In this document: positions 436 through 52,147 of the stretch, piece by piece
Layout of the letters: each line of letters begins with the position of its first letter
Numbering within the stretch: the stretch's first letter is position 1
IMG/VR virus record: IMGVR_UViG_2882238243_000002
Span: 78,447-142,446 of that record
Length of the DNA stretch: 64,000 bases
DNA from: a virus
Lineage: Duplodnaviria > Caudoviricetes
Strand: one strand, 5' to 3'
Notes under the pieces: model-generated
Seen by the model: the letters and a program-made list of their open reading frames with translations, nothing else
The model's database searches: none
Told to the model about the DNA's origin: nothing
Position numbers and translations under genes: made by a program

Positions 436-629
436 AATGCACATTAGAAGAGGATGTTAATACTTGTCAATTCTTCAAAAGAGAGGTTCACACATGAAAT
501 GAAGGTAAATGTTCTTTTCAGGAAGAAGACGAAACAAACGTAAACGGAGAATATACAAGAGATAAGCGTTGGTATGAGCAATATTACAAGAAGAAAGATT
601 GATTTCAAGTGAAGAGGAGGATTTAACAT

Positions 630-851
630 ATGGAAACTATTTTGTATGGGGAGCATAGCGTGTGGAAATTTTTAAAAAAAGATAGATATACCAAAGAAGG
701 AATAAAGAAAACAGAACAGATTTATGATTTTCTTCAAAAGATGAAAGAAGATGTGGGTGTTGACAGAATGAGAGAATTGTTTGATATGTGGAATGAATAT
801 AGTGATGAGACATTTTGGATTTTATCAAACATTACTCATGATAATGAATAG
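630..851 (+). CDS. Hypothetical protein
   Basis: ORF with GAGGAGG RBS. Confidence 0.65.
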   Translation: METILYGEHSVWKFLKKDRYTKEGIKKTEQIYDFLQKMKEDVGVDRMRELFDMWNEYSDETFWILSNITHDNE

Positions 852-879
852 CAGTTAAAAGCCAGATTAATAGGAGGAA

Positions 880-1038
880 ATGATGGAAAAATTTATGAAC
901 GAACCAATCCCATATGAGCGGACTAATAAAGACATTATTCAGGAATATGAAAAGTGCCAAGATAAAAAGAAAGTGGCTGTCATATGGGGAATTAGTGTAA
1001 AAGAAGTTGATGAGATATTAAAACAAGAGAAGACTTGA
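880..1038 (+). CDS. Small hypothetical protein
   Basis: 52-aa ORF after AGGAGG, read by eye. Confidence 0.5.
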   Translation: MMEKFMNEPIPYERTNKDIIQEYEKCQDKKKVAVIWGISVKEVDEILKQEKT

Positions 1039-1049
1039 GGTGATGTTAT

Positions 1050-1205
1050 ATGAAAGTAAAGAGAAATAATCCGGAGTGGTGTTGTCAACAGATTGAGGAT
1101 AAAATACAAGATTATAAAATAAGTATAACTGAAACAGAAAACGAAGATGTAAGAAGGCAATTAGAAATTATTGTTGAGGACTTAGAAGAAATATTATATG
1201 GATGA
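1050..1205 (+). CDS. Small hypothetical protein
   Basis: 51-aa ORF after GAGGTG; its TGA stop forms the left arm of the repeat site at 1203. Confidence 0.5.
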   Translation: MKVKRNNPEWCCQQIEDKIQDYKISITETENEDVRRQLEIIVEDLEEILYG

Positions 1206-1583
1206 AATGCTGTTTTCAAATTAAAAATTATTCAGGAGGATAATATGAATATGGATAGTAAGATTAATAATTTATTATATTTAGAAACAATCATAACAAA
1301 CCTGATACACCGTGAAATTGAAGAATTATTAAGAGGAAAAGAATCGGATAGTCAAAAACTTAAAGAAAGTATTATATACCAAATAGATGACAGACTGAAT
1401 ACACGATAAAATCAACTTTAAAAAGAAATTCATGTAAAAAGAAGTTAGAAGATATGGAATATGAGGTGAGCTTTTCTCCAGATAATTATGAATTAGTGAT
1501 ACGAAAATTTGATATGATAGACAAGCATTGAATAAAATCTTTGTTTGTGGTTGGAGAATAATAAACGTAAAGAGGTAAGGTAG

Positions 1584-1835
1584 ATGAAATTAAATTTTAG
1601 CTTGAAGAATAAGGAAGCAAGTTTAGAAGCAGATGTTGAAGGGGTTATTGAAAAAGGTTTCGAGCATAGGGCTAAAAATCCTAATAGAAAAACTCGACAT
1701 CAGATCAAACAAGAAGAAAAACGGTTGAATGAAGAATTAAAACAGAAAAAGTTAATTCAGGGTATGCTGCTGATGATGGGACTCATTGTTTTTGCTCTAA
1801 TTATCTGCGCAATCGGATCTGCGTTGAATTGGTAG
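1584..1835 (+). CDS. Small membrane protein
   Basis: C-terminal hydrophobic helix (GMLLMMGLIVFALIICAIG). Confidence 0.6.
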   Translation: MKLNFSLKNKEASLEADVEGVIEKGFEHRAKNPNRKTRHQIKQEEKRLNEELKQKKLIQGMLLMMGLIVFALIICAIGSALNW

Positions 1836-2291
1836 AAAAGATGTGAGAATTAGTGGTAAGATACAATGAAAGGATAGTTTCGTGGGAGGTGATGTTGTGG
1901 GATTTGATATGTACCTGATTAAGGTGGACAAAAATAAGATAAGAAATTTAGAAGAACCTTTGTGGCAAGAAATTCAAGATGCAACGATTGATGAAGTAGA
2001 TAACTATTATCCTGTTTTACATGATTTTTATTAGGATCATGATGATTTACAATGGATATATGAAGAATATAATCTCTTATCGGAAATCAGTTTGACTGAA
2101 ATAATTGAGTGGTTAAAAGAGAAAATAAAAACAAAAAAAACTTTGGTTTAGATAGTAGCGAAGAAAGAATGACTAAAATGGTTTATGAAAATATAAAAGA
2201 TTGGATTCCTCTAAAAGAAAATGAGATTGTTTATTTTGAGGAAGATAGCTAATAAAAGAGAAATCTCTTTTGGAAAGGAGAATAAGTAATT

Positions 2292-2504
2292 ATGGACAAT
2301 AAAAAATGCATTGAGATTTTAGAAACTTTAAAATGCGACTTAGATGACAATTGGGACAAATCAGACCCTGAAATAATTCAAATTATAAATAGATATTTTT
2401 CCGCTATTGATCATGCGATTATCAGTTTATCAAGTAAGAATATGGTAGGAGAACTGATTATTGAAGACAAAAAATATATTATTTGTGGACAAGAATTGAG
2501 TTGA
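2292..2504 (+). CDS. Hypothetical protein
   Basis: ORF with AAGGAG RBS. Confidence 0.55.
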   Translation: MDNKKCIEILETLKCDLDDNWDKSDPEIIQIINRYFSAIDHAIISLSSKNMVGELIIEDKKYIICGQELS

Positions 2505-2529
2505 TGATTTACTAGATAGGAGGGCTTGT

Positions 2530-3105
2530 ATGAGCGTGGAAATGCAAATTGCTTTATTGGGTATCATAGGCACCCTTGTAGGTACAGTATTAGGTTGGTT
2601 TTTAAATAATCTGTCACAGCGAGGAAAACTTAATATATATGTTTCATCTTGGAAAGATAAATTCGAGTACAATCATATTGGAACAATGGTTCCTAGTTCA
2701 AGCATCGAACAGACTGAAAGTTATTCATACAGATTAGCACTCGATTTATATAACGATAGTGGTGAAACAAAGATAATGAGAAATGTTGAAATTGTATTTG
2801 CTAAAAACAAAGAGGTATTGTATTGCAGTGTTCCCAAAGATGAAGCAACTGGGCGAACAAGCCATCCGATGGCATATTATGATGATGTATTACCTATAAA
2901 CATCCCACCAAAGACTGTTTTACATATAGAACTCTTCAAAGGGGTTTGGAAAAGTAATACCTCACTTGATTTTATTTGGAAAACTACTTCGGTATTTTTG
3001 AGATATGTAAACGAGAATAATAAAAAAGTAAGTGTTATGATTAATAAAGTAAACTACAAGGATTATTTTATTCATCATAAGACAGATGAGCAAGATAATG
3101 AATAA
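2530..3105 (+). CDS. Membrane-anchored hypothetical protein
   Basis: N-terminal TM helix (IALLGIIGTLVGTVLGWFL); TAA stop is the left arm of site 3103. Confidence 0.65.
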   Translation: MSVEMQIALLGIIGTLVGTVLGWFLNNLSQRGKLNIYVSSWKDKFEYNHIGTMVPSSSIEQTESYSYRLALDLYNDSGETKIMRNVEIVFAKNKEVLYCSVPKDEATGRTSHPMAYYDDVLPINIPPKTVLHIELFKGVWKSNTSLDFIWKTTSVFLRYVNENNKKVSVMINKVNYKDYFIHHKTDEQDNE

Positions 3106-3135
3106 AAGTTCAGTTTCAATACGGGAGGGATAAAT

Positions 3136-3360: not shown

Positions 3361-3402
3361 TATATAATGAATGTGAAATTTCGTAGCATTGGGAGAAAGT
3401 AG

Positions 3403-4212: not shown

Positions 4213-4241
4213 TTGAAAAAGAACAACTGTTCGATTATAAT
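4213..4241 (+). promoter_or_regulatory. SigA promoter overlapped by a LexA (Cheo/SOS) box
   Basis: TTGAAA (4213-4218), 17 bp, TATAAT (4236-4241), with GAAC-aact-GTTC at 4221-4232, directly upstream of dinB. Confidence 0.8.
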
Positions 4242-4272
4242 AACCTTATCCAATAATTTAGGAGGTGTCATT

Positions 4273-5538
4273 TTGGATAGGGTTATTTTTCATATAGATG
4301 TAAATTCCGCGTTTTTATCATGGGAAGCAGCATATCGCATTCATCATCTGGGAGGTAGATTGGATTTGCGTACAATTCCATCTGCTATCGGTGGAGATGT
4401 AAGTATGCGCCATGGTATTATTCTTGCTAAGAGCATACCAGCAAAGCCGTATGGAATTCAGACTGGAATGACGATAATGGAGGCAAAACAAAAATGCCCT
4501 AATTTATATTTGGCTCCTCCGAATTACTCTTTGTATCAGAAATGCTCGAAGGCATTTTTGACTATTTTACGTGAATATACACAAGATGTTGAGGTATACA
4601 GTATTGATGAAGCATTTCTCGATATGACAACTACAATGCACCTATATGGAGATCCTATAGATGTAGCTAATCAAATTAAGAATCGAATACGAGACGAATT
4701 AGGATTTACTGTGAATATTGGAATTTCATCTAATAAACTTCTGGCAAAGATGGCAGGTGATTTCAAGAAGCCAGATTTAGTTCATACACTTTTCCCGGAA
4801 GAAATTGAGAAGAAAATGTGGGTATTGCCAGTATCAGAACTATTTTTCTGTGGTCGAGCTACCACAAAGAAATTATTGAACTTTGGTATTAATACAATAG
4901 GAGATTTAGCGCATACTGATATAGAGTTCTTAAAAAGAAATTTAAAAAAGCAAGGTGAAATAATGTGGAACTTTGCGAATGGACTTGATTTTTCTGCTGT
5001 AATATCAGAAACGCCAAAACAAAAGGGGTATGGAAATTCTACCACCACTCAGTTTGATGTAAAAGATGCTGAGACAGCTCAAAAGGTGTTATTAGCATTG
5101 TGTGAAACTGTAGCTGCTAGATTGCGAAAAGATGATTTCCAAGCACAAGTAATATCTGTTGGCGTTAAGAGTTCCGATTTAAGTTATGCAAGTCATCAGA
5201 TGATTATGAAAAGTCCAACGAATATTACAAATGAATTATATTATTATTCTTGCAAGCTATTTCTTGAATTATGGGATAAACAAACTCCTATACGACATCT
5301 TGCGGTTCACACCAGTTCTTTAACATCTGAGTTTGGTTCCCGACAGCTTAACTTATTCGACGTAACTGATTATATAAGGTTAGAAACGTTAGATAAGACA
5401 GTAGATATTATCAGAACAAGATATGGTAATGATGCGGTTAAACGAGCAGTATTTATTCAAACGCCAATTGACCATATGGAGGGTGGAGTGTCTAGAGAAA
5501 AGCGTACAGTAGATTATTCAAAGATTAACGTTGTCTGA
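4273..5538 (+). CDS. dinB: Y-family DNA polymerase IV (DinB/UvrX-like)
   Basis: IFHIDVNSAF, YSIDEAFLD and NKLLAKMA motifs; TTG start at 4273 after GGAGGTG. Confidence 0.9.
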   Translation: MDRVIFHIDVNSAFLSWEAAYRIHHLGGRLDLRTIPSAIGGDVSMRHGIILAKSIPAKPYGIQTGMTIMEAKQKCPNLYLAPPNYSLYQKCSKAFLTILREYTQDVEVYSIDEAFLDMTTTMHLYGDPIDVANQIKNRIRDELGFTVNIGISSNKLLAKMAGDFKKPDLVHTLFPEEIEKKMWVLPVSELFFCGRATTKKLLNFGINTIGDLAHTDIEFLKRNLKKQGEIMWNFANGLDFSAVISETPKQKGYGNSTTTQFDVKDAETAQKVLLALCETVAARLRKDDFQAQVISVGVKSSDLSYASHQMIMKSPTNITNELYYYSCKLFLELWDKQTPIRHLAVHTSSLTSEFGSRQLNLFDVTDYIRLETLDKTVDIIRTRYGNDAVKRAVFIQTPIDHMEGGVSREKRTVDYSKINVV

Positions 5539-5549
5539 TTCAAAGGAAG

Positions 5550-5870
5550 GTGATTTTTGTGGGAATGGGCATCGGAATAAATGATACAATTACCGATGAA
5601 GGTGTGATAAAGGGGCATCAAGAAGAAGTGGCTTGTGATGCGTGGTTTACAGCTAGCGGCAGAATAATTATTCGCCTTATAAAACAAAAGAAAAAAGACG
5701 AAAGTATAGTTGAAATAGATAATATTCGTGTACTTTCATCATCTAAAAAGAACTTTTGTGGTATTCAAACGATAGAATTTATATGCGAAGCAGTTGTTGA
5801 AGGTTTTATGAAAAGATTTAAGCTGTTCTTTTACACAGAAGAACAAATATGGAGGATGATAATGTTGTAA
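5550..5870 (+). CDS. Hypothetical protein in the DinB operon
   Basis: ORF tightly between dinB and the SRAP gene. Confidence 0.6.
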   Translation: MIFVGMGIGINDTITDEGVIKGHQEEVACDAWFTASGRIIIRLIKQKKKDESIVEIDNIRVLSSSKKNFCGIQTIEFICEAVVEGFMKRFKLFFYTEEQIWRMIML

Positions 5871-5889
5871 TAAATAAGGAGGTGTAAAA

Positions 5890-6477
5890 ATGTGTGGACG
5901 ATATTATGTTGATGATAATACAGCCAAAGAAATTGAAAGATTGCTTCAAAAATTAGACAATCGATTAAAGGTAGCACATAAATCAGGAGATGTATATCCA
6001 ACTAACAGTGCAATGATTGTCAAAGGAGAAAATGAGAAGCTGATTTTAGATGAAATGATTTGGGGTTTCCCACAATATCAGAAAAAAGGTGTTATATTTA
6101 ATACAAGATCGGAGTCGGCATTAGAGAAAAAGACTTTCTCGAACAGTACACGGAGTCGTAGATGCCTAATTCCTGCAAAGGGGTTCTACGAGTGGGATAG
6201 TGTAAAAAATAAAATTTCTTTTGAGCGTCAAGATGGAGATACTATGCTACTGGCTGGTATTTGGAATAATTTTGGATTGGATAGAAGATTTACAATTTTA
6301 ACAACTGATGCAAATGAAACGATGCATCAGATACATGATAGGATGCCTTTAATAATCGAACCTGAAGAAGCAGAAACGTGGTTGTTTGATGAAAGTTGTG
6401 TAGAGTTTATGCTGAATAAAATACCATGTAATTTAGCAATTGTTGAAGGAAATTATCAGCAAAAACTAGATTTATAA
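5890..6477 (+). CDS. SOS response-associated peptidase (SRAP/HMCES family)
   Basis: N-terminal MCGRY, RCLIPAKGFYEW, IHDRMP. Confidence 0.9.
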   Translation: MCGRYYVDDNTAKEIERLLQKLDNRLKVAHKSGDVYPTNSAMIVKGENEKLILDEMIWGFPQYQKKGVIFNTRSESALEKKTFSNSTRSRRCLIPAKGFYEWDSVKNKISFERQDGDTMLLAGIWNNFGLDRRFTILTTDANETMHQIHDRMPLIIEPEEAETWLFDESCVEFMLNKIPCNLAIVEGNYQQKLDL

Positions 6478-6492
6478 TAATGTTTGATGAAG

Positions 6493-6528
6493 AAAAAGAC
6501 GATAGAAATTATTCACTATCGTCTTTTT
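6493..6528. terminator. Bidirectional intrinsic terminator
   Basis: AAAAAGACGATAG / CTATCGTCTTTTT inverted repeat between convergent genes. Confidence 0.75.
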
Positions 6529-6772
6529 TATTTTGTTTATTTAACATAAAATATGCCATTAAGCGATTTAATCGAGGATCATCTGAAACCATAATTTCAT
6601 TTGGTGTGCATTCGAGTTCGAGACAGATTGCTTCGAGTATTTCCAGCTTTATGCTAGTTGATTCGCCATTATATATTTTATCTACGGTCTTGTAAGTAAC
6701 GTCAATACGTTTTGCCAACTCATACCTGGTTATTCCTTTATTATCTAACTTATCTTTAATATTTAAACGCAT
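6509..6772 (-). CDS. XRE/Cro-C1 HTH transcriptional regulator
   Basis: ITRYELAKRIDVTYKTVDKIYNG...LEAICLELECTPNEI. Confidence 0.85.
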   Translation of the reverse strand: MRLNIKDKLDNKGITRYELAKRIDVTYKTVDKIYNGESTSIKLEILEAICLELECTPNEIMVSDDPRLNRLMAYFMLNKQNKKDDSE

Positions 6773-6810: not shown

Positions 6811-6903
6811 GTACATATAGATAATATCATACATATAGGAAAATAAATATAGGAAATATTTTACTTATAGTTACTTGACAACCTATATGTACTTGTGTAT
6901 AAT
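6811..6903. promoter_or_regulatory. Divergent promoter region with operator-like repeats
   Basis: TTGACA (6875-6880), 17 bp, TATAAT (6898-6903); GTACATATAG at 6811, ACATATAGG at 6831, inverse CCTATATGTAC at 6882. Confidence 0.65.
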
Positions 6904-6945
6904 ATGAAATATAAAGGCACTAATCAGAGAGGAGGATGCGTAAAT

Positions 6946-7308
6946 ATGACACATAATTTAAAAAGGTTTGATATTGTTCTTGTTGATTATGGAATAGAAG
7001 TAATAGGCTCGGAGCAGGGCGGAATACGTCCATCTATTATTATACAAAATGATATGGGTAATATACATAGCAGCACAACTATTGTAATGCCATTAACAAA
7101 ACAAATCAAACGCCTCAACCAACCAACGCATACTCTCATTACAAAAGGAGAAGGCAAAGGAATAGTTGAAGATTCTATGGTTTTAGGAGAATGTATGAGA
7201 CAAGTATCAGAAAAAAGAATTATCAAATATCTTGGTTCTATAACTGAAATTAATGAGAAAAGAAGAATTAAGCGTGTATATGACGCTAATTTTGGAGAGG
7301 TGGCATAA
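6946..7308 (+). CDS. PemK/MazF-family endoribonuclease-like protein
   Basis: KRFDIVLVD, GSEQGGIRPSIIIQNDMGN, TTIVMPLT motifs; ATG 6946 after GGAGG. Confidence 0.85.
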   Translation: MTHNLKRFDIVLVDYGIEVIGSEQGGIRPSIIIQNDMGNIHSSTTIVMPLTKQIKRLNQPTHTLITKGEGKGIVEDSMVLGECMRQVSEKRIIKYLGSITEINEKRRIKRVYDANFGEVA

Positions 7309-8599: not shown

Positions 8600-8634
8600 A
8601 TAATTCAATGAAAAATTAGTGGGTGGGTGTGACA

Positions 8635-9291
8635 ATGAATAATATGCAAAAACAACAAAACAAGGGAAAATACTCTGAAACAGAAATTAAGATTATTGAA
8701 GAGTATTGTGATAATGAACTGTATATATTGAAAAAAATATGTGATCCTATAATTTTCAAAAAAGGTGTTCCACAAATGTACCACGATGATTTATATGCTC
8801 TTGCGGTAGACACGCTAGATGATAGTGTAAAGCGTTATGACGCCACTAAGGACTGCCAGTTTAAGACTTTTCTTACGGGAAACATTAAACGAACCTTTTA
8901 TGATTGGACAAGAGACAATACACGTTGGAAACGTTGTAATCTGCAAACAAACGAAGAGGGGAATATTGTAAAAGATGAAAATAATAATCCTATCATTATT
9001 CCTAATATTTCAATTGATGCTCCCACCGATGACGGAATTGATTTAAGTGAAAAAGTAGCGTCATCATTTAAAGTAGAGGACGAGCTATCAGAAGAAATTG
9101 GACTTTCATCTAATGACAAAATTGAAAAGTACCTAGAAAAGTTATCTAAAGTACAAAGACAAATTGTATTATTCTTGTCTGATGGATACTCCCAGGAAGA
9201 TATTAGAGAATTATTACATATAAGCAAAAAAGAATATTCAGATAACATGCTTACCATAAGAGCGTATGAAAACGTAAAAATATTATATTAA
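8635..9291 (+). CDS. Phage sigma-70 family (SigH/ECF-like) sigma factor
   Basis: Region-2-like DDLYALAVDTL..YDATKDCQFKTFL and region-4 LSKVQRQIVLFLSDGYSQEDIRELL. Confidence 0.75.
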   Translation: MNNMQKQQNKGKYSETEIKIIEEYCDNELYILKKICDPIIFKKGVPQMYHDDLYALAVDTLDDSVKRYDATKDCQFKTFLTGNIKRTFYDWTRDNTRWKRCNLQTNEEGNIVKDENNNPIIIPNISIDAPTDDGIDLSEKVASSFKVEDELSEEIGLSSNDKIEKYLEKLSKVQRQIVLFLSDGYSQEDIRELLHISKKEYSDNMLTIRAYENVKILY

Positions 9292-9307
9292 TTTGGGGGA
9301 CATAGTC

Positions 9308-10990: not shown

Positions 10991-11779
10991 ATGTGTAGAT
11001 TTAAATCAGCAGTAATCTTAAAAAACAGGGTGATATTAGCGCCAGAAGGGAATGAAAGTCACTCAGATTTATTAAGGAGTTTAAATATTGAAGATTCTCA
11101 TTTTAATGCATCAAAGACATTTGTTAGAGCAGAGTTAGTGCCGCCAGATGGAAATAAGGCAATTGATATTGACAAATGGGAATATATTGTTGATCAAGAT
11201 ATTGTACCCGATTGGTTTGATGAAGACTCAGGCAGATATGAAATAGAAATGCGAAATGCAGTTGGCGAATATATGAAGGATAAACTTAAAAATATTATTT
11301 GCGGATATGATTGGACACCGGTTACAGAAGGAGAATATACATATTACTTCATGAATGGAATAATGTCTAAATCCAACTTTGGAAAAACAAACGACTACAG
11401 AGAATCTGCTGTTAGAGCAGATTTGCTATCTAGTAATCTACTGGCGAATTTAAAGGAAAAGTTTGGCGATAACCTTGTTCCAATTACATTAGACCTTACT
11501 TCTATGGATGGGTTTAAAGATTACGGAAATGTAGAAGGAGATCTTCTGGCCATTCCAAATATTGAATTATTAATGAAGTTTGGAAACCAAATTCAACTAA
11601 TAGATAATTGGTATTGGCTTGCAACACCAAATCAGACTCCTTCTAGGAGAGATTCTTCCAACGTTCAGTGTGTTGGCTCCGATGGCCTCGTGGACTGCTG
11701 CGATTGTTGCTGGAATGGCAGGGGCGTGCGTCCGTTTTTTATCTTGAAATCTGATATCTTAGTATCTGCAAGTAAGTAG
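10991..11779 (+). CDS. DGR target protein with C-terminal CLec-type variable region
   Basis: Ends WYWLATP...SNVQCVGSDGLVDCCDCCWNGRGVRPFFIL; 3' end matches the TR. Confidence 0.9.
   Translation: MCRFKSAVILKNRVILAPEGNESHSDLLRSLNIEDSHFNASKTFVRAELVPPDGNKAIDIDKWEYIVDQDIVPDWFDEDSGRYEIEMRNAVGEYMKDKLKNIICGYDWTPVTEGEYTYYFMNGIMSKSNFGKTNDYRESAVRADLLSSNLLANLKEKFGDNLVPITLDLTSMDGFKDYGNVEGDLLAIPNIELLMKFGNQIQLIDNWYWLATPNQTPSRRDSSNVQCVGSDGLVDCCDCCWNGRGVRPFFILKSDILVSASK
11655..11736 (+). repeat. DGR variable region (VR)
   Basis: 82-bp copy of 12255-12336 with 14 mismatches, all at TR adenines. Confidence 0.95.
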
Positions 11780-40786: not shown

Positions 40787-40807
40787 TTGTATTTATCAAA
40801 TAATCAG

Positions 40808-40833
40808 ATTGGGTGGCTTACAAGCCACCCAAT
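40808..40833 (+). terminator. Strong hairpin
   Basis: ATTGGGTGGCTT-ac-AAGCCACCCAAT. Confidence 0.5.
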
Positions 40834-40853
40834 ACTATCAAGGTGGTGGGAAG

Positions 40854-42898: not shown

Positions 42899-42919
42899 TA
42901 AGAAGTAGAGTGGTGAGAT

Positions 42920-43948
42920 ATGTTATCAGAAATTAAAAAGGAGTTAATTAATCACCCTGAAAAACTCAAGGAAGTATTAAAACATTTTGGTTATTGTAAT
43001 GTGGTAGCTAGAACAAAATATTTACAGTTTGGTAGAGATGAATATTCATCAAAAAAGTCTCTAGTTGTTAAACTGGAAAATAACCAGTATCTGTATGTGA
43101 CTGATTATGCAAGGAATATTCAAAAAGACTTATTTAGTTATATTAGCGAACAAAGAAAAATTGAATTTTCAGAAGTGCTGCATGGACTAAAAGGGATATT
43201 GGGTATATCTGACTACTGTGAATATTTTAGTAAAAAGGGAATTTTTGGTGGGTTTTATGAACGCATTAGAAAAAAAAGCACATACAAAGTCAATACATAT
43301 AATGAATCCATCTTAGACAATTATGCAAAATACGGCAATTTAAGATTCCTTGAAGATAGCATATCAATAAACACTCAACAGTTTTTTAATATTAGATATG
43401 ATGTTGAGTCACAAGGAATTGTAATACCAATATACGATCAAATAGGGCAACTCATAGGTATAAAGATCAGGGTGAATTTTGAGGTTTCAGATGGTGAGCA
43501 GAAATATTACTATTTGATTCCATGTGCAATGTCTCAAACTTTATATGGGTATTCACAGAACTATAACTATTTAGTGGAAAATACAGTGTTTATATTTGAG
43601 TCTGAGAAATCAGTGATGCAATGTCATTCATATGGAATAAGGAACTGTGTCGCACTAGGGAGTGGTTCTATTAGTTCAAAACAAGTGCAGATGATTTATG
43701 AACTAAATCCAAGTAAAGTAATTTTTATGCATGATGTTGGATTTGACTTAGAAAATATTATGAGAAATATCTTATTGGTAAAATCATATTCAAGATTTTC
43801 GGAAATTGAATTAGGGTATTGGAATTACTTTGACTATGGATATGAAGGGAAGATATCTCCCTCTGATTTAGGGAAAGCCGAATTAGAGAGAATTATAAAT
43901 ACAGAAATTTTATTGATTGGAGATGATGAAAGCGAAGACAACTTATAA
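42920..43948 (+). CDS. DNA primase (Toprim)
   Basis: IVIPIYD, KYYYL, LYGY, IFESEKSV, VALG, MHD. Confidence 0.75.
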   Translation: MLSEIKKELINHPEKLKEVLKHFGYCNVVARTKYLQFGRDEYSSKKSLVVKLENNQYLYVTDYARNIQKDLFSYISEQRKIEFSEVLHGLKGILGISDYCEYFSKKGIFGGFYERIRKKSTYKVNTYNESILDNYAKYGNLRFLEDSISINTQQFFNIRYDVESQGIVIPIYDQIGQLIGIKIRVNFEVSDGEQKYYYLIPCAMSQTLYGYSQNYNYLVENTVFIFESEKSVMQCHSYGIRNCVALGSGSISSKQVQMIYELNPSKVIFMHDVGFDLENIMRNILLVKSYSRFSEIELGYWNYFDYGYEGKISPSDLGKAELERIINTEILLIGDDESEDNL

Positions 43949-45551
43949 TGTGATTTCTGATTGTCGGGGAATGTGTGAGAATGAAATAATAAATACAATT
44001 ATTTCTGATAGAGGAATTAAAGATGTAGAGCATTTTTTGAATCCAAATGAAGGTGATTTGTTGCCTTTGGATTCCTTAGAAAATATTGATATGGCGAGAA
44101 AAATTGTTGAAAATGGAATCGATAGTGGCTCTCGCTTTGGTGTTTTATGGGATACAGATACAGATGGAGCAACATCTGGAGCAATCATGACCAGATATCT
44201 ATTGAATTTTACAAAAACTGTGTTTCCATTTATTAATGAGGGAAAAGCCCATGGATTGATAGGACAAGATATTGATAGATTCAATGATTGCGATATTGTG
44301 ATTGTTGTGGATAGTCTGGATAAAGATATAACTCAATATAAAGAATTGGTAACAAGAGGTAAAGAAGTTATAGTCTTAGATCATCATGCCATCGCTCAAG
44401 ATGTCCCATATGACAAATATGTCACACTGGTTAGTTCACAGAGAAACTATGATAATCTTGCTCTGTCCGGAGCAGGTGTTGTGTGGAAATTTTGTAAATA
44501 CCTTGATCAATATTTTATAGAGGATTATGCGGAAGACTATGTCGATCTGGCGGCCTGTGGACTTGTGGCAGATATGATGGACGTTTCTGAAAAGAGTATG
44601 GAAAACAGATACATAATTGAAATTGGACTAAATCGGATGATAAATCCTGCAATAAAAAAAATTGTCGGTAGTTTTCCCTTTAATAGTACTGCAATTTCTT
44701 TCAGTATCGCACCTTTGATAAATGCTGCAAACCGTATGAATCAAAATGAATCGGCGATGAGTGCTTTTTTAGCAGACGATAATAAAGAAGTTCTAAAATA
44801 TGTAAAAGAATTAAAAAAATGCAAAGAAGAACAAAATATTGAAGTCAAAAACTTGATGGATGATATTATCATTCAGGCAGACGGACAATTAGATAAAAAG
44901 GTTATATCTGTTTTTATAAATAGTGAAAATGGAATCTCTGGATTGGTTGGGAACAAACTACTTGAAAGATATCAAAGACCTTTGTTGATTTTAAAAGAGA
45001 TAGAAATAGGTGGAGAAAAATATTATGCGGGATCTGCAAGAGCAATTGGTATCGATGATTTTAGAAAACTTTGTAATGAAACTGGTGTTGCTGAAGCAAA
45101 TGGACATGAGTTGGCATTTGGGATACAGGTAAAGGCAAAAGAATATAGAGATTTTATTTCCAAACTTGAAGAGTCTTTGGAAAACATTGAATTTAAGATG
45201 GCAAGAACTGTGGATATTGAGTTAGATATATTTGATATAACAAGAGATTTAATTGACAAAATTAAGTCTATAGATAAAATATCTGGCACAGGATTTAAAC
45301 CAATAACAGTAAAAGTATCTGATATTACGGAATATGAGGTAGGTAGTATGTCTCAAGGGAAGCATCTTGTATTAAAACCAACAGATTATTTACAACTTAT
45401 CAAATGGAATTGGAATGGTTCATTTGATGATATGGAGGATAATGCGATATTAGAAGAACCAATAACTGTGATTGGTAAATTGGATTCTGGTTGGTTAGGA
45501 AGAACGTTTTCCTTAAAAATAATATGTGATGAAGTAAAGGTGGTGGCATAG
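43923..45551 (+). CDS. recJ: RecJ-like ssDNA exonuclease (DHH)
   Basis: DTDTDG, LDHH, LSGAGV, ADMM, PLINAANR, GSAR, GHELAFG. Confidence 0.9.
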   Translation: MMKAKTTYNVISDCRGMCENEIINTIISDRGIKDVEHFLNPNEGDLLPLDSLENIDMARKIVENGIDSGSRFGVLWDTDTDGATSGAIMTRYLLNFTKTVFPFINEGKAHGLIGQDIDRFNDCDIVIVVDSLDKDITQYKELVTRGKEVIVLDHHAIAQDVPYDKYVTLVSSQRNYDNLALSGAGVVWKFCKYLDQYFIEDYAEDYVDLAACGLVADMMDVSEKSMENRYIIEIGLNRMINPAIKKIVGSFPFNSTAISFSIAPLINAANRMNQNESAMSAFLADDNKEVLKYVKELKKCKEEQNIEVKNLMDDIIIQADGQLDKKVISVFINSENGISGLVGNKLLERYQRPLLILKEIEIGGEKYYAGSARAIGIDDFRKLCNETGVAEANGHELAFGIQVKAKEYRDFISKLEESLENIEFKMARTVDIELDIFDITRDLIDKIKSIDKISGTGFKPITVKVSDITEYEVGSMSQGKHLVLKPTDYLQLIKWNWNGSFDDMEDNAILEEPITVIGKLDSGWLGRTFSLKIICDEVKVVA

Positions 45552-45552
45552 A

Positions 45553-48500
45553 ATAGGGACTTTAGAATTAATCAAAACAATTATTCCAACGCTGAATTTT
45601 AAATTTCCGTATTCAGCAGAGGATTATGCAGAGAATTTATATCTTGAAAATTATCATTGCCATAAAGATTTTAGCAATACAAGTACACCTGATTGTGCAG
45701 AATCTATTGAGAATTATGCAAAGTTGACTCATGAATATCAGTCTAAATGTTTGTTTTCAGGAGATCATGGTTCACAAGGAAATCAATTCTTGGTATATAA
45801 AACTTCCGAAAATGAAAAATTAAAATATATTCATTCAACAGAAGCTTATTGGGTGAAGAATCGGTATGAAAAAGATAGAAAAAATTGTCACATGGTTATT
45901 GTCGCTAAGAATGCAGATGGTAGGGGCGATATCAACTTTGCCCTATCAAGAGCAAATGAGGATGGATATTACTATAAACCAAGAATTGACTTGGAATTAT
46001 TGTTTGATATTCCAAAGGATAATGTAATTGTTACCTCTGCGTGTATTGCAGGTTGGAATTACGAAGATGCTGAAGATATTTGGATTAAAATTCACAACTA
46101 TTTTGGCGATAATTTTTATCTCGAAGTTCAACCACATAATACAGATAAACAAAAGAAACTTAACCAGAAGATTCTTAGAATTGCCAAGGATAACAATATC
46201 CAGATTATAGCTGGCATGGATAGTCACTTTTTAAATGATAAATCATCAGTAAAACGTGATCAGATTCTTAAATATAAGGGAGTAAATTATCCAGACGAAG
46301 AAGGATGGTACATGGATTGGCCGGATACTAAGACGGTAATCCAGAGATTTAAAGAACAAGGTATCTTATCCGAAGAAGATATTTATAGATCTATTATGAA
46401 CACTAATGTGTTTGTAACAGAGTGCAGAGAGATTATTCTTGATAAATCATTCAAAATTCCCACTGTCTATCAAGGTAAGACATATGAAGAAAAGTGCAAG
46501 ATATACAAACATGAACTAAATATCGCTTATGCAAAAGAAAAGGAAAAGTCAAAAAAAAAGGCAGATGGAGTAAGGTACGAAGCCAAGGAAGTTATGGATT
46601 CTGGTGTTGTAGATTATTTCCTAACAAGCAAGGCTATTGTTGATGATGCGGTGAACAATGAGGGAGGTATATTAACAACAACTTCTCGTGGTAGTGCAGC
46701 TTCATTTATTACAAATAAATTATTAGGACTTACAACCGTCGATAGATTCAATGCTGATATCCCTATTTATCCAGAAAGGTTTTTAACAAAAGAACGTGTT
46801 GTTGCGGGTATGATGCCTGATATTGATTTAAACGTAGCTACTCAAGAACCGTTTGTAAAAGCGACAAGGAAATTATTGGGAGAACATGGCTGCTATCCAT
46901 TAATGGCTATAGAAAAACTAAAAGAAAAGGCTGCATGGCAATTATACGCTGGTGCCAATGATGTTAGCCCTGATGATGCAAATCAAATCTCAAAGTACCT
47001 AGATGAATACAACAAAGCATTAAAATATGCTGATGACGAAGAAAAAGATTTGATTTTGGTTGAAGATTATATTCCCGATGATTATTTGGAATTATATAAA
47101 CAAAGTAACGAATATCAGGGGATTACAATCAATTTAAAATGTCATGCCTGTGGACACATAATTTTTAATGGAGATGTTCGTAGAGAAATTGGACTCATCA
47201 GTGCTGTTTCTGAAACAACTGGTCAAAGAACTCTTTGTGCTGCTATTGAAGGTGGATACCTTGATGAATTTGGATATGTAAAAGAAGATTTTCTTATTGT
47301 TGATAGTGTTTATCTTACATATAAATTTTTTGGCAGTATTGGCATGAAAGTTCCAACATTTGATGAACTTAGAAAAATGATAGACGGAGATAAACTCACA
47401 TGGAAAATATACGAAAAGGGTATCACTTGTTGTGTGAATCAATGTGAAAAAGACGCTACTACTAATAGGGTTAAGAAATATAAACCACAAAATTTACGGG
47501 AATTGAGTAGTTTTATAGCCGCTATACGCCCTGGATTTGCATCTCTATTGAGCACATTTTTGAATAGGGATCAGTATACAACAGGAGAATCAAAAATTGA
47601 TGACTTACTGTCAGATACTGCTCATTTCATGATATATCAAGAATCAATTATGAAAGTTTTATCATTCCTGAAATTGGAAATGGGAGAAACATATGGTGTA
47701 ATCAAGTCCATTTCAAAGAAAAAATTGAAGGGAGAAAAGAAACAACGCTTATTAAATGAACTGACTACATCATGGAGAGAAGAATTTCATAACACTAATA
47801 GTTTTAATAATGTGTGGAATGTTATTGAGGATTCAGCTAGATACGCTTTCAACTCCCCTCATGCTTACAGTATGGGAGGAGATAGTGCATATCAAGCGTG
47901 GTTTAAAGCACATCATACAAAAGAGTTTTATGAGGTCGCCATTAACCACTATCAAGAAAAAAATAAGAAGAACAAAATTGATGCACTCGTGAAAGAGGCT
48001 ATAAAGTTTTATGGGTATAAACTAGGAGATTACGAATTTGGAGCAGACAATAGAAAAGTTACAATTGATGAGGAATTTGGATTGATTTATCCTAATCTAT
48101 CTAGTATTAAGGGGTTTGGAGAAGGAGTATCTGAAACACTTTTTGAGTTAGGACAAGAAGAATATGACAATTTTACAGATGTCCTGACGATTCTGTTTTC
48201 AAACTCGATAAACAAAACTGTTATTGACAAACTGATTAGAATTAACTATTTCAAAAAATACGGCGATGTTAATACTCTTTTGTGGATAACAAAATATTAT
48301 GACTTAGTATTTGAAGCTAAGACCATATCAAAGTCAAAGGCTGAGAAAAACAATCTTCCATTTGATATCTTGAAAAAACATGGAAACGAAACAGAAAAAC
48401 AGTTTAACAAAATTAATTCAGTTGACTTGTTGAATGAACTAATTCAAAACATCAAATATCAAGAACTAACTATAAAAGAGCGTCTGGATAATGAGAGAGA

Positions 48501-48846
48501 GGTATTGGGAATTGTATCTAGTTATGAAGAGAAAGCTGATAAGAGATTATATTACATCTCAGAATTAGAGTCTAAGAAGTCAATCACAAATGTAAGACTG
48601 TTTGAAATCTATAGTGGTAAAACTAGAGAAGTAAAAATGTGGACGAGTCAGTATAATAAGAGTCATTTTGAATTGGGTGATATTCTGTATATAACCTGTT
48701 TGGAGAAAAAGAATAAAAAAGAGCCAACAGGTGAAATAAATCCAGATACTGGGAAAAAGATATATAAGGAGATACCTGATAAATTTGAATACTGGTTGAG
48801 CAGATTCATTATAAAAAATGAAATTGAAAACGAGGTGAGAGATTGA
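45553..48846 (+). CDS. dnaE: DNA polymerase III alpha subunit (DnaE-type)
   Basis: PHP NYHCH, YYKPRID, SACIAG, RGSAASF, PDIDLN, HACG, KEDFL, YAFNSPHA; frame open from ATA 45553. Confidence 0.92.
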   Translation: MGTLELIKTIIPTLNFKFPYSAEDYAENLYLENYHCHKDFSNTSTPDCAESIENYAKLTHEYQSKCLFSGDHGSQGNQFLVYKTSENEKLKYIHSTEAYWVKNRYEKDRKNCHMVIVAKNADGRGDINFALSRANEDGYYYKPRIDLELLFDIPKDNVIVTSACIAGWNYEDAEDIWIKIHNYFGDNFYLEVQPHNTDKQKKLNQKILRIAKDNNIQIIAGMDSHFLNDKSSVKRDQILKYKGVNYPDEEGWYMDWPDTKTVIQRFKEQGILSEEDIYRSIMNTNVFVTECREIILDKSFKIPTVYQGKTYEEKCKIYKHELNIAYAKEKEKSKKKADGVRYEAKEVMDSGVVDYFLTSKAIVDDAVNNEGGILTTTSRGSAASFITNKLLGLTTVDRFNADIPIYPERFLTKERVVAGMMPDIDLNVATQEPFVKATRKLLGEHGCYPLMAIEKLKEKAAWQLYAGANDVSPDDANQISKYLDEYNKALKYADDEEKDLILVEDYIPDDYLELYKQSNEYQGITINLKCHACGHIIFNGDVRREIGLISAVSETTGQRTLCAAIEGGYLDEFGYVKEDFLIVDSVYLTYKFFGSIGMKVPTFDELRKMIDGDKLTWKIYEKGITCCVNQCEKDATTNRVKKYKPQNLRELSSFIAAIRPGFASLLSTFLNRDQYTTGESKIDDLLSDTAHFMIYQESIMKVLSFLKLEMGETYGVIKSISKKKLKGEKKQRLLNELTTSWREEFHNTNSFNNVWNVIEDSARYAFNSPHAYSMGGDSAYQAWFKAHHTKEFYEVAINHYQEKNKKNKIDALVKEAIKFYGYKLGDYEFGADNRKVTIDEEFGLIYPNLSSIKGFGEGVSETLFELGQEEYDNFTDVLTILFSNSINKTVIDKLIRINYFKKYGDVNTLLWITKYYDLVFEAKTISKSKAEKNNLPFDILKKHGNETEKQFNKINSVDLLNELIQNIKYQELTIKERLDNEREVLGIVSSYEEKADKRLYYISELESKKSITNVRLFEIYSGKTREVKMWTSQYNKSHFELGDILYITCLEKKNKKEPTGEINPDTGKKIYKEIPDKFEYWLSRFIIKNEIENEVRD

Positions 48847-49373
48847 AATATTACTATACTGAAAAGCAATTGAAGGAACTAGTTTCTCACCTCGTAATCC
48901 TTCACACTACTAATGAGCAGAAGAACCAACATATTTTGGATTATTATGATAAAAGAAGTATTAAACATAAGGCAAAAGCTTTAAAGACGGGAGACTATTC
49001 ATTTATGATAGAATCTTGTCCAGAATTAGGATTTGCAAAGGATACATATTTTACAGATGAATTATGCATTGAAAGAAAAAATTCTGTTGATGAATTGGCA
49101 GGGAATATCAAAGAACATGATGAAAGATTCTTCAAAGAACTAAACAGGATGATTAATATCAAAAATTCTTATCTCTTAATAGAGAACAATAGATTAGACG
49201 ATATCATCAGCCACAATTACCGGTCAGAGTACAACGAACTTGCTTTTATCAGAAGATTGTTAGGAGTTCAAAAGGTGGCAAATATTTATATTAATTTTGT
49301 AAATAAAGAGAATATGGGATTTATGATTTATGAGATTTGTTACAGTGCTTTAATGGGACAGATACTGAAATGA
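48843..49373 (+). CDS. ERCC4-domain nuclease
   Basis: TNEQ, LKTGDYS, IERKNSVDEL. Confidence 0.8.
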   Translation: MKYYYTEKQLKELVSHLVILHTTNEQKNQHILDYYDKRSIKHKAKALKTGDYSFMIESCPELGFAKDTYFTDELCIERKNSVDELAGNIKEHDERFFKELNRMINIKNSYLLIENNRLDDIISHNYRSEYNELAFIRRLLGVQKVANIYINFVNKENMGFMIYEICYSALMGQILK

Positions 49374-49428
49374 TTTTATTTTTCAAATGAAACATATTTT
49401 TCATAAAGAAAATCGGAGGTAGTGAAAC

Positions 49429-50035: not shown

Positions 50036-50242
50036 ATGACAGAGAAAGTTAAAAAATACAGGACGAAACATAAGAGATGTAAATACTGTAAACATCTTAG
50101 GCTGGTTATTCGTCGAGATAATACTGGCGGTGATTATTATTGCTGTGTAGCAAAAGATAAAATCATCGGAGATTACTTCCCGGACATAACACAAGTGCCA
50201 AGATGTTTCTGTCAGTGTTATGAGGTAAAAGAAGATGAATAA
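50036..50242 (+). CDS. Small Cys-rich hypothetical protein
   Basis: MTEKVKKYR...CKYCKH. Confidence 0.5.
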   Translation: MTEKVKKYRTKHKRCKYCKHLRLVIRRDNTGGDYYCCVAKDKIIGDYFPDITQVPRCFCQCYEVKEDE

Positions 50243-50441
50243 TAATTGGACTTTATTTAAAGATGAGAAACCAAAGGTCGGTGAGCCGGTATTGTTTCAA
50301 GCAGAACGTGACGGGCATATGTATATCGGATATGTAACAACCTATGGAGGTGTTAAGTGCATTACTGCAAGAAATTCTACAGTAACTGGTATGAAACCTA
50401 TTACATGGATGGAATTGCCTGAAAGATATAAAAAGAGTTGA
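50235..50441 (+). CDS. DUF551-like protein
   Basis: W....DEKP...ITWMELP. Confidence 0.6.
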   Translation: MNNNWTLFKDEKPKVGEPVLFQAERDGHMYIGYVTTYGGVKCITARNSTVTGMKPITWMELPERYKKS

Positions 50442-50468
50442 AACAGTGGTTTCAACAGGAGGATATAA

Positions 50469-50684
50469 ATGAACGTAACAATAGAACTAATAAATTTACA
50501 GACATATATGATATCAAAGGATAGAAGTATTATCGATAGAAATGGGAAATATAAAAGCACTCCAGATGTACTTAAAATACTACATCAAATTTGGGAAGAA
50601 ATTGATGATAGCGAAAGACATTATTTAGAAAAATTAGTAATTGGGACTCCGTATTTCACGGGAGAAATGAGGTTTTGTTTTTGA
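50469..50684 (+). CDS. Hypothetical protein
   Basis: AGGAGG RBS. Confidence 0.5.
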   Translation: MNVTIELINLQTYMISKDRSIIDRNGKYKSTPDVLKILHQIWEEIDDSERHYLEKLVIGTPYFTGEMRFCF

Positions 50685-51025
50685 ATTTATTTTACGTGGG
50701 ATTAAAAGTAAGAGTAGTAAATGCAGATAAGAATTTGTATGGAGCATTGCTGGATGAATATCAAAAGCGTGGCTATTTGTATATAGCAGATATTTTTGAA
50801 AATGGGAATGTCTTTATTTCGTATTCCTCACACGGAGGATTACTCATGAGCTTCGATAGGAACTTATTAGAACCGTATTATGATGAAAATATTCTGCAAG
50901 TTCTAAACAATAAAAAGGAAGAACTTAAAAGAATTGGCAGAGAAGTTGCTGATATTGAGAAGTTCATAAATGAAAGGTGTAAGAACAGTAGTGAAAGCCC
51001 TATTTCAGAGAGAACGGAGAAATAA
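50675..51025 (+). CDS. Hypothetical protein
   Basis: ORF reading through site 50992. Confidence 0.5.
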   Translation: MFLNLFYVGLKVRVVNADKNLYGALLDEYQKRGYLYIADIFENGNVFISYSSHGGLLMSFDRNLLEPYYDENILQVLNNKKEELKRIGREVADIEKFINERCKNSSESPISERTEK

Positions 51026-51225
51026 AATATGAAACTTAAAATTACAACACAAATAACTGTGGACGACGATATTACTGGCGAAGAGATTGAAAAAATTAGA
51101 GAAGAGTTTGAGGACGTTGGCTGGGAAAATAATATGATAGCCACTCAACCAAATGTACATATAGAAGAAATTTCCAAGTAAACGAGTATTTTATACAACG
51201 TGAAATTTAAAACCGAATAAGGGGA

Positions 51226-51432
51226 GTGATAACTATGCAGTTTATTTTATCAGAACACGAAATGAAACGTGGTTGCGAATTACTAGATGCGTGGACTACA
51301 GAACCAACAACGTTGGATAGTGTTTATACGGAGCAAGTAAGTCTTAACGAACAAGGATATTTCACTGTAATACATTGCGTTGACGTGGACAATGACTTGT
51401 ATATAATTAAAGTATTTGAAAGAAATGAGTAA
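51226..51432 (+). CDS. Hypothetical protein
   Basis: ORF track. Confidence 0.5.
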   Translation: MITMQFILSEHEMKRGCELLDAWTTEPTTLDSVYTEQVSLNEQGYFTVIHCVDVDNDLYIIKVFERNE

Positions 51433-51458
51433 TATCTAATAAAATAGAAAGGTTACGA

Positions 51459-51500
51459 TAAGTTCCTATAGGATAAAGTGCGCACACTTATGACGGTAAG
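51459..51500 (+). repeat. Leader repeat copy 2 (also at 28772-28814)
   Basis: Near-identical ~42 bp leader, also followed by ATGGAACAAAA. Confidence 0.75.
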
Positions 51501-51503
51501 TGA

Positions 51504-52112
51504 ATGGAACAAAAGAAAGTATTAGCAGGAAGTAAATTGGCAGGTGGAAATCCTGCAAATGGAAGAGTTGAAAATGATTTTTATGCAACGAACCCAAAAG
51601 CGGTAAAGATGTTATTAGATGAATACGCTTTTAATGGGGAGAGGTGGCTTGAACCATGTGTTGGTCAAGGACATATTTCAAAGACTATTTCAGAAATCTA
51701 TAACAACGATGTGATTATTGATGGAATTGATTTAGTTGATAGAGGATTTCCGGATACAATTGTTGCAGATTTTCTTACATATGAGTCGGATAACAAATAT
51801 GACGTAGTAATAAGCAATCCTCCGTTTTCTCTTGCACAAGAGTTTATTGAAAAGGGATTGAGTTTATTAAAAGATAAAGGACAGATGGCAATGTTCTTGA
51901 AAATTCAATTTTTGGAAGCCGGAAAACGTAAAGAATTTTTTGAAAAATATCCACCTAAATATATTTATGTATTTAGAGATAGAATGGCGACTTGGAACAA
52001 CGGAAATGAAATAAATCCAGAGACAGGAAAGAAATGGGCAACTACAATGTGTCATGCTTGGTTTATATGGGAAAAAGGTAGTAAGACGGAACCGATTGTA
52101 AGATGGTTATAA
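51504..52112 (+). CDS. N6-adenine DNA methyltransferase
   Basis: DFYATNP, LEPCVGQG, ISNPPFS. Confidence 0.8.
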   Translation: MEQKKVLAGSKLAGGNPANGRVENDFYATNPKAVKMLLDEYAFNGERWLEPCVGQGHISKTISEIYNNDVIIDGIDLVDRGFPDTIVADFLTYESDNKYDVVISNPPFSLAQEFIEKGLSLLKDKGQMAMFLKIQFLEAGKRKEFFEKYPPKYIYVFRDRMATWNNGNEINPETGKKWATTMCHAWFIWEKGSKTEPIVRWL

Positions 52113-52147
52113 GATACAGTCGAAATCGTGATTTCATGCGATTTCAA

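Follow-up and report, generated by a model that had tools for sequence, protein, structure and literature searches.

The DNA considered here is a window of 64,000 nucleotides from a Caudoviricetes record of IMG/VR (IMGVR_UViG_2882238243_000002, positions 78,447 to 142,446), corresponding to G000:C8:298301-362300 inside a 4.26-Mb genome, where it forms part of an island of low GC content (approximately C8:215-367 kb; 0.31-0.35 versus about 0.40-0.43 around it). The element in question is a 16-bp palindrome, TGAAA-N6-TTTCA, which recurs at the junctions of small early genes of a prophage, in the neighbourhood of a gene for an Xer-like tyrosine recombinase whose 3' end opens the window. The original prediction, made from the letters of the window, had listed about 30 such sites and framed them as an integron- or pdif-like system through which a phage would acquire, excise or shuffle accessory genes. 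The analysis described below favours another reading, to which we assign a probability of roughly 0.5, namely that the palindromes are address-coded crossover sites for a slot-by-slot exchange of accessory genes between related SPbeta-like phages.

The prophage carries its structural and lysis genes on the minus strand and has a long plus-strand arm in which small early genes are followed by a replication module and by genes of nucleotide metabolism. The replication module encodes a DnaB-like helicase, a primase, a RecJ-like exonuclease, a DnaE-type polymerase and an ERCC4-type nuclease, and its gene order is that of yorF-yorL of Bacillus phage SPbeta; the prophage is therefore, judged by gene order, a large and distantly SPbeta-like one. 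An integrase of 417 residues, distinct from the 331-residue Xer-like recombinase, stands at the right end of the prophage, adjoining host genes. Since the genes were called with a crude script, all junction counts given below are approximate.

A 16-bp palindrome at early-gene junctions

The window holds nine perfect copies of TGAAA-N6-TTTCA, whereas 100 dinucleotide shuffles averaged 0.46 and never gave more than 3, which bears out the earlier estimate of less than one chance copy in 64 kb; the eight perfect sites listed originally are all present, and a ninth, at 6584, had been missed. The whole prophage (156 kb) contains 17 perfect copies, versus 1.6 expected from 30 third-order Markov simulations, and the remaining 4.1 Mb of the host genome contains 24. 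When up to one mismatch is allowed, 63 copies are found in the prophage versus 29.6 simulated (46 versus about 28 for the one-mismatch class alone), and once the two-mismatch class is added there is no excess (334 versus 306). The same division emerges from spacer controls at the called junctions of the early arm, where sites with a 6-base spacer number 9 in the perfect class, 15 with one mismatch and 26 with two, versus 0, 1 and 17 with a 5-base spacer, 0, 3 and 30 with a 7-base spacer, and 0, 0 and 11 with an 8-base spacer. The anticipated enrichment at gene junctions is thereby upheld for the perfect and one-mismatch classes (9 and 15, versus 0-3 with the other spacers), and because the two-mismatch class does not exceed its controls, about 18 of the 30 sites first listed are credible (8 perfect, 10 with one mismatch), the other 12 or so being weak (nine with two mismatches, two with three and one with four). 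Perfect and one-mismatch sites are specific, whereas two-mismatch ones are indistinguishable from background by sequence alone.

On its upstream side the array reaches some 11 kb beyond the window, as far as G000:C8:286846; it spans G000:C8:286.8-350.4 kb only, the replication, nucleotide and virion modules being nearly site-free. The original claim that no site occurs between 4.3 and 13.4 kb is inexact in view of the perfect copy at 6584, albeit one that lies in overlapping open reading frames (ORFs) and off any called junction. Counted from base one of the upstream stop codon, most sites begin at a distance of 0-12 nucleotides, and 13-26 nucleotides separate their ends from the next start codon. 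The placement of the upstream stop in the left arm, originally counted in 11 cases, is confirmed in kind and reduced in number: by the rough gene calls, the stop codon is formed by the first three bases of the arm at 1203, 3103, 28442, 31687, 35322 and 50439, and lies one base further into it at 34214 and 36557. In the phage family this exact coincidence is seen in 22 of 71 perfect junction sites. A logo built from 137 perfect sites of eight genomes consists of five fixed bases per arm and a free 6-base centre, and the only conserved features outside the arms are an A at -1 (103 of 137) and the ribosome-binding site (RBS) of the next gene. The G earlier noticed as part of an extended right arm (G/GG) does exist, at +19 in 75 of the 137 sites, and belongs to that RBS.

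The location between a stop codon and the following RBS could also suit a motif that acts in RNA, as a post-stop hairpin or protein-binding element for mRNA processing, e.g. by a MazF-like RNase, or for tuning translation of the next gene, and a PemK/MazF-like gene is indeed conserved in six of seven relatives. The variants speak against it, since 101 one-mismatch junction sites include TAAAA..TTTCA 21 times, TGAAA..TTTTA 15 times, CGAAA five times and TTTCG six times, a mirror-symmetric pattern with no preference for wobble-compatible changes, in which the form allowing a G-U pair (TGAAA..TTTTA) is no commoner than the one creating an A-C mismatch (TAAAA..TTTCA). The arms are conserved in sequence and do not covary, a 5-bp A/U-rich stem would probably be weak, and the crossovers in DNA inside the site, described below, would be left unexplained. 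In relatives, some sites directly follow phage tRNA genes, beginning 0-4 bases 3' of them (two cases, e.g. L079, G043:171455). Symmetric variants, a bare logo and sites after tRNA genes are thus signs of a symmetric dimer of protein bound to double-stranded DNA rather than of an RNA hairpin, and action in RNA, one of the alternatives first offered, appears very improbable.

Homology between relatives breaks at the sites

Many relatives of 130-215 kb are found in IMG/VR, and the motif recurs among them with the same spacer preference. In 63 loci around the polymerase gene, 77 perfect copies have a 6-base spacer, versus 0-24 with other spacers; 17 more loci, around recombinase homologues of 63-67% identity, hold 31 perfect N6 sites in 314 kb, other spacers giving 0-5; and 10 related whole records contain 3-26 perfect copies (8-26 in seven of them, 3-6 in three), with 0-1 for a backward-motif control.

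The closest relative, G041, whose polymerase is 98% identical, shares with the window a block at 38105-49404 (96.7%) that ends on the site at 49388-49403, and a second block at 50036-50454 that ends on the site at 50439-50454. At both boundary sites the centres are identical, and past the right arm the sequences are unrelated. Homology with 25 related loci ends at 31685, next to the site 31687-31702. An all-against-all megablast of eight genomes gave 908 unique block ends, of which 24 right ends fall at site offset 15-17 and 23 left ends at -1 to +2, where about one would be expected if they were uniform; this clustering at the site edges persists when the sites are oriented by gene direction. 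When the site contexts of 151 sequences were pooled (952 distinct ones), 41 of 64 junction changes with a common upstream flank break at offset 13-19, and 40 of 58 with a common downstream flank break at -6 to +2. Homology between relatives is thus shown by comparison to break at the outer edges of the 16-bp site.

Junctions with and without a site behave differently in the early arm. Between G043 and G044, 15 site junctions are boundaries and 3 are continuous, versus 21 and 77 for site-less ones (odds ratio 18, p 9e-7), and between G043 and G042 the corresponding figures are 9 and 2 versus 26 and 60 (p 0.0015), a control that is partly confounded because the sites lie in variable regions. Taken together, the comparisons provide good support in the relatives, and a direct demonstration at two sites of the window, for the reading of the sites as seams of gene exchange, as far as aligned genomes can tell. 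The window itself contributes little to such alignments: at 80% identity or above, DNA-level matches to it amount to 23 blocks in 167 sequences, and the IMG/VR scans with polymerase, RNA ligase and recombinase (63, 80 and 17 loci) gave almost no DNA-level match to its array. A scan of one metagenome for closer relatives returned a single 28% match, the GTDB relatives yielded only host DnaE, and a megablast of the window against the phage collection gave no match.

The 6-base centre stays in place while genes change

In the 64 junction changes with a common upstream flank, the centre is the same in 56, ambiguous in one and different in 7, and in the 58 with a common downstream flank it is the same in 55, ambiguous in one and different in 2, i.e. 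it is identical in 111 of 122 changes overall. A crossover between unlike centres would make same and different outcomes equally common, and the excess of same centres therefore indicates that the partners nearly always had the same centre. The arrays of G042, G043 and G044 carry the same centres in the same order with differing genes in between; for example, between centres tgacga and aattgc there is a 108-residue gene in one array and a 114-residue gene in another, and two blocks have exchanged places, each retaining its upstream centre.

Within single genomes, identical centres are not in excess, for which reason insertion flanked by like centres was rejected. The comparison of G043 with G044 showed no inverted blocks, and nothing was found to indicate that genes are excised, inverted or shuffled inside a single genome. 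The original proposal of recombination junctions for accessory genes accordingly survives as exchange between genomes (boundaries at 15 of 18 site junctions versus 21 of 98 site-less ones), with no sign of the excision and in-genome shuffling that it also contained.

The preserved centre bears on a further explanation, in which the sites are passive linkers, or targets of another DNA enzyme (a nuclease or restriction-like enzyme) whose breaks stimulate exchange, and the recombinase would serve some other purpose, for instance the resolution of dimers. Some restriction sites are likewise bipartite palindromes with a 6-base gap, the prophage encodes an ERCC4-type nuclease and a RecJ-like exonuclease, and the recombinase is absent from some of the records that bear sites. 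Only with precise repair would breaks of this kind preserve the centre in 111 of 122 junction changes, the analysis turned up no candidate for the enzyme, and the resemblance of the site to the XerH/difH recognition mode would have to be coincidence, all of which makes this explanation improbable.

An Xer-like recombinase at the head of the window

The recombinase matches the Pfam family Phage_integrase (1e-22) and a SAM-like N-terminal domain, and its best solved relatives in the PDB are XerH, XerA and XerD. R184, K210, H281 and R284 (the R, K and HxxR positions) are invariant in five homologues, with H/W and Y present in each by eye; the homologues in G043, G045, G046 and G050 are 22-40% identical and retain the catalytic R, K, HxxR, H/W and Y. 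With a score of 93 bits, it stays below all NCBIfam equivalog cut-offs for XerC, XerD, XerS and XerA (220-335), and it is, by these family models, a divergent Xer relative outside every named equivalog. Models of integron integrases gave no match to the window recombinase and matched the G043 homologue across a 50-residue stretch only.

Upstream of the recombinase, at G000:C8:295796-296326 (window -2504 to -1974), there is a divergent helix-turn-helix (HTH) pair, with a repressor-like protein of 83 residues on the minus strand and a Cro-like one of 62 residues, followed by a P22-type antirepressor gene and then by the recombinase gene. A TTGACA-17-TACAAT promoter upstream of the recombinase is covered by two perfect GTATTC-N5-GAATAC operators, a sequence found nowhere else in the arm, and no terminator-like sites were found between this promoter and the end of the recombinase gene. 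The HTH pair was considered as the binder of TGAAA-N6-TTTCA and rejected, as it has its own operators.

A related palindrome in SPbeta

SPbeta contains no perfect TGAAA-N6-TTTCA. In an unbiased count of 5-mer palindromes at the junctions of its early arm, TAAAA-N6-TTTTA ranks first: junctions have 19 copies and coding sequence, with its eight times more positions, has 7; the copies are placed right after stop codons and ahead of ribosome-binding sites (e.g. at positions 86074, 86886, 87599 and 88400 of NC_001884). A 2.6-kb SPbeta stretch with four such sites was searched against the phage collection (Goe11-14, phi3T, SPbetaL1-8 and the BUCT phages), and 9 of 13 distinct internal homology boundaries lie in a site or within 9 nucleotides of one, the four sites with this margin covering about 5% of the stretch.

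The motif had also been suspected of being a dispersed operator like the SPbeta repeated element (SPBRE) bound by MrpR. As read upstream of five SPbeta genes named as MrpR peaks (six copies, two of them before yonX), SPBRE is AAATACAAAWAATATGTAT, with the core ATACA-N7-TGTAT; it stands at promoters and has about 10 copies in SPbeta. SPBRE was rejected as the identity of the window motif, being a different sequence that is not enriched in the window (three matches at three mismatches, versus 3.8 expected), so that this alternative is excluded as far as the motif goes. An orthologous relation between the recombinase and YopP, YopR or YomM of SPbeta was likewise rejected, the alignments being not significant and none being obtained to YopR.

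Features of the window and of the adjoining array

Table 1. Sites and genes in window coordinates, unless the G000:C8 prefix is given.
Feature	Position	Strand	Remarks
ArdA anti-restriction gene	G000:C8:284972-285520		In array upstream of window
P22_AR_N/ORF6C antirepressor-like gene	G000:C8:285947-286699		In array upstream of window
P22_AR_N/ORF6C antirepressor-like gene	G000:C8:296563-297312		In array upstream of window
Xer-like tyrosine recombinase, 331 residues	1-167 (3' end of gene); whole gene G000:C8:297472-298467	+	Pfam and PDB matches
Site, one mismatch (AGAAA..TTTCA)	592-607		Intergenic, RBS next
Perfect site	1203-1218		TGA is upstream stop
Site, one mismatch (TTTCG)	1867-1882
Site, one mismatch (TAAAA)	3103-3118		TAA is upstream stop
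Two mismatches	3368-3383		Inseparable from chance
Y-family polymerase (IMS) and SRAP peptidase genes	4213-6477		SPbeta counterparts: yolE-like polymerase, yoqW
Perfect site, role uncertain	6584-6599		Within overlapping ORFs 6480-6695 (+) and 6509-6772 (-), upstream of MazF-like gene
PemK/MazF-like endoribonuclease gene	6895-7308		Homologues in 6 of 7 related phage genomes
Sigma-70-like and GmrSD_N/DUF262 proteins	8623-10762		Homologues in 7 of 7 related genomes
Reverse-transcriptase gene (RVT_1)	10991-13523		ORF extends through perfect site 13496
Perfect site	13496-13511		Final codons of reverse-transcriptase ORF (12456-13523)
Two mismatches	14375-14390		Inseparable from chance
IS3-type transposase (rve, HTH_21)	16575-17785	-	Local GC up to 0.38
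Two mismatches	18319-18334		Inseparable from chance
Site, one mismatch (TTAAA)	19483-19498
Two mismatches	19735-19750		Inseparable from chance
Site, one mismatch (TTTCC)	20581-20596		8 nucleotides past stop
Three mismatches	22814-22829		Unsupported
Four mismatches	24603-24618		Unsupported
Perfect site	24845-24860		Followed by hairpin and minus-strand small gene
Perfect site	26422-26437		Separates 138-residue gene from AAA ATPase gene
Site, one mismatch (TTTAA)	28442-28457		TGA is upstream stop
Two mismatches	28710-28725		Inseparable from chance
Site, one mismatch (TTTCG)	31687-31702		Closes RNA-ligase three-gene block; contains upstream stop
Site, one mismatch (CGAAA)	32177-32192
Two mismatches, at junction	33680-33695		Inseparable from chance
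Two mismatches (TTAAA..TTTTA), at junction	34214-34229		Inseparable from chance
Perfect site	35322-35337		TGA is upstream stop
Two mismatches, at junction	36557-36572		Inseparable from chance
Two mismatches, ahead of TnpB	36804-36819		Inseparable from chance
TnpB-type gene	36847-38043
Site, one mismatch (TGAAT)	38064-38079		TnpB stop 23 nucleotides before; conserved replication block about 25 nucleotides after
Replication module	38105-49404	+	Single block 96.7% identical to G041; homology stops at final base of site 49388-49403
Perfect site	49388-49403		Direct mosaic boundary; centre catatt identical in G041
Perfect site	50439-50454		Direct mosaic boundary; centre cagtgg identical in G041; TGA is upstream stop
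Perfect site	50992-51007		Final codons of ORF 50675-51025
Three mismatches	51178-51193		Unsupported
Site, one mismatch (CGAAA)	52121-52136		Last of the array
Non-replication arm gene	58560-59228		Besides 8623-10762, the only one with homologues in all 7 relatives

Between the perfect site and a degenerate copy sharing AAAACGATATT (24845-25251) lies a small gene on the minus strand, which has a terminator of its own; the 11-base repeat at 24847 and 25238 is real and imperfect. In two relatives, a 1.6-kb element with a 391-residue gene on the minus strand (G043:156226-157815 and G044:177093-178682) is 99.9% identical at two different places, inserted in both right after the RBS GAGGT.

Proposed mechanism and its weighing

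In the mechanism that we propose, the Xer-family recombinase encoded by the phage would bind with one monomer per TGAAA half-site and cleave both borders between arm and centre, as XerH does on difH. Recombinases of this class usually need matching central regions; exchange would accordingly require identical 6-base centres, each of which would serve as an address. Two phage genomes residing in one cell would then recombine at sites of corresponding position, swapping whatever stands between two addresses, while the differing centres inside one genome would prevent the self-deletion or self-inversion of genes. With the recombinase gene standing in the array behind a strong lytic-type promoter, the enzyme would be produced when the phage infects or is induced. 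The mechanism that fits best, and one that we infer, is catalysis by this Xer-like recombinase, with the centre as address.

Several findings weigh against this mechanism. As regards the enzyme, the search of the 10 related records found no recombinase homologue in four of them (G041, G047, G048 and G049), and these keep their sites (10 perfect ones in G041, a record that is 76% complete, and 3, 6 and 6 in the others); the homologues that exist are very divergent (22-40%) although the arms are identical; SPbeta YopP and YomM align with the window recombinase at E 0.25 and 0.11 only and show K at the expected second Arg; and the link between enzyme and site would rest on layout and neighbourhood. 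As regards the seams, site-less junctions are boundaries too (21 of 98 between G043 and G044), several breaks fall at the RBS or just past the ATG, and one insertion is flanked by a repeated 26-nucleotide RBS region, which is consistent with general short-homology recombination; and of the window's own sites only two are directly testable, because the accessory genes have almost no DNA-level relatives. As regards the address, there are nine junction families with different centres, and similar centres are only weakly avoided inside single genomes (13 pairs, versus a null mean of 22.7 that is inflated by orthologues). Finally, 39668-40786 occupies the position of SPbeta yorG, annotated as a Sak4-like annealing protein, so that by gene order the phage may encode an annealing protein of its own; a family search of the 39668-40786 protein gave a partial terminase-like match only, leaving an annealing role unconfirmed.

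In another explanation, which we consider possible and rather doubtful, the palindrome is an operator-like site for a dimeric regulator, either an HTH protein or a recombinase-fold protein acting as a repressor like MrpR, e.g. as a roadblock that silences toxic early genes in the lysogen, and the swapping would be a by-product of short-homology recombination between identical 16-bp islands, in the manner of the PeSLs of T4-type phages. Symmetric arms, a free centre and a centre-to-centre distance of 11 bp suit a dimer on one face of the DNA, the intergenic placement resembles that of the stoperators of phage L5 (PMC6550527), and PeSLs show that repeated regulatory elements can drive shuffling (PMC2839356). 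Boundaries at the RBS, the ATG and the 26-nucleotide repeat, and sites in records with no detectable recombinase homologue, are as would be expected; and homology-driven exchange equally predicts partners with a common centre, which takes from the centre statistics some of their weight for a recombinase. Such a regulator, however, should not be the sole repressor/Cro-like pair found near the array, whose GTATTC-N5-GAATAC operators are confined to their own promoter within the arm; stoperators span both arms of L5, whereas hardly any of the phage sites lie in the replication, nucleotide or virion modules; 16 identical bases are a very short substrate for recombination; and the retention of the catalytic residues across 22-40% identity argues for catalysis, unlike the case of MrpR.

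Mosaicism in phages is usually attributed to rare illegitimate recombination plus selection, or to homologous exchange in conserved flanks. Here the seams carry a defined 16-bp element with a recombinase-type layout, and a 6-base label that stays by position while unrelated genes replace each other. If the phage recombinase carries out this exchange, related phages would possess a dedicated mechanism for reassorting genes of host takeover, defence and counter-defence. A wider proposition, which we put forward more tentatively and at somewhat less than even odds, is that a natural cassette-exchange system extends from SPbeta of B. subtilis (TAAAA-N6-TTTTA) to large prophages of gut Firmicutes (TGAAA-N6-TTTCA), in which a phage Xer-family recombinase and 20-70 minimal core sites with unique centres would allow swaps without flanking homology and without self-scrambling. 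Because SPbeta and its cultured relatives share this architecture, the idea lends itself to a direct test in Bacillus subtilis. In the literature searched, including an SPbeta review in part, there was no account of these junction palindromes.

Comparison with known systems

In its layout the site matches an Xer-type core site, as originally recognized for tyrosine recombinases, with two inverted arms around a 6-base centre and a recombinase with the R-K-H-R-H/W-Y set. The difH site consists of TGAAAA, a 6-bp centre and TTTTCA, arms that are nearly equal to TGAAA/TTTCA, and altering its G or its A run abolishes recombination (PMC3325230). XerH reads just the inner 5 bp of each arm and hardly contacts the centre (PMC5241119), and therefore the objection that arms of 5 bp are too short for a tyrosine recombinase falls. 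The two systems differ in that difH occurs once per chromosome and serves dimer resolution with FtsK, whereas the phage has dozens of sites, at gene junctions and with their own centres (17 perfect ones in the prophage, up to 26 in relatives, rather than a single site per replicon); moreover, the TGAAA and TTTCA blocks are 8 bases apart in difH and 6 in the phage site.

This system is neither an integron nor a set of pdif, SPBRE or stoperator sites. With integrons, which have been reported in phages too (PMC9892861), it shares the position of a site behind the stop codons of cassette-like genes and the proximity of a tyrosine recombinase, and it differs from them in having no attC hairpins, since conservation ends at the 16 bp and one flanking base, and no IntI-type integrase, the recombinase being Xer-like; nor were there signs that genes leave as circles or are captured at a single attI. 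The pdif sites of Acinetobacter plasmids are 28 bp long, have distinct XerC and XerD arms, use host enzymes and flank modules in pairs (PMC6449649). Like them, the phage sites are many Xer-type sites in accessory regions and bound gene modules that recur in different contexts; unlike them, they are 16-bp palindromes with symmetric 5-mer arms, and a single phage-borne recombinase would apparently act in same-centre exchange only. The integron/pdif-like framing first given to the array is thus not supported.

SPBRE/MrpR and the L5 stoperators resemble the array in that short sites are dispersed and have, or in the array would have, a single phage protein as their binder. MrpR, a protein of recombinase fold that lacks catalytic residues, binds dispersed SPBRE (PMC10516654), whereas the catalytic set of the window recombinase is intact; L5 stoperators are asymmetric, oriented and present over both genome arms (PMC6550527), whereas the phage site is palindromic and restricted to the early array. 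PeSLs are cassettes of promoter and terminator that recombine by homology and form mini-circles (PMC2839356). They resemble the phage site as a short repeat between small non-essential early genes of a hyperplastic region that marks boundaries of insertion, deletion and replacement, and differ from it in that the phage site has 16 bp, neither promoter nor terminator (no T run), only an RBS before the next start, and a recombinase-type layout.

A last parallel is an engineered method. The phage sites resemble those of heterospecific lox/FRT cassette exchange in having identical arms and differing spacers. In that method, only like sites recombine, which results in the ordered exchange of segments. 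To our knowledge, no natural counterpart of it has been described, and, if the interpretation of the palindromes as address-coded crossover sites is true, the arrays of these phages would be such a counterpart.

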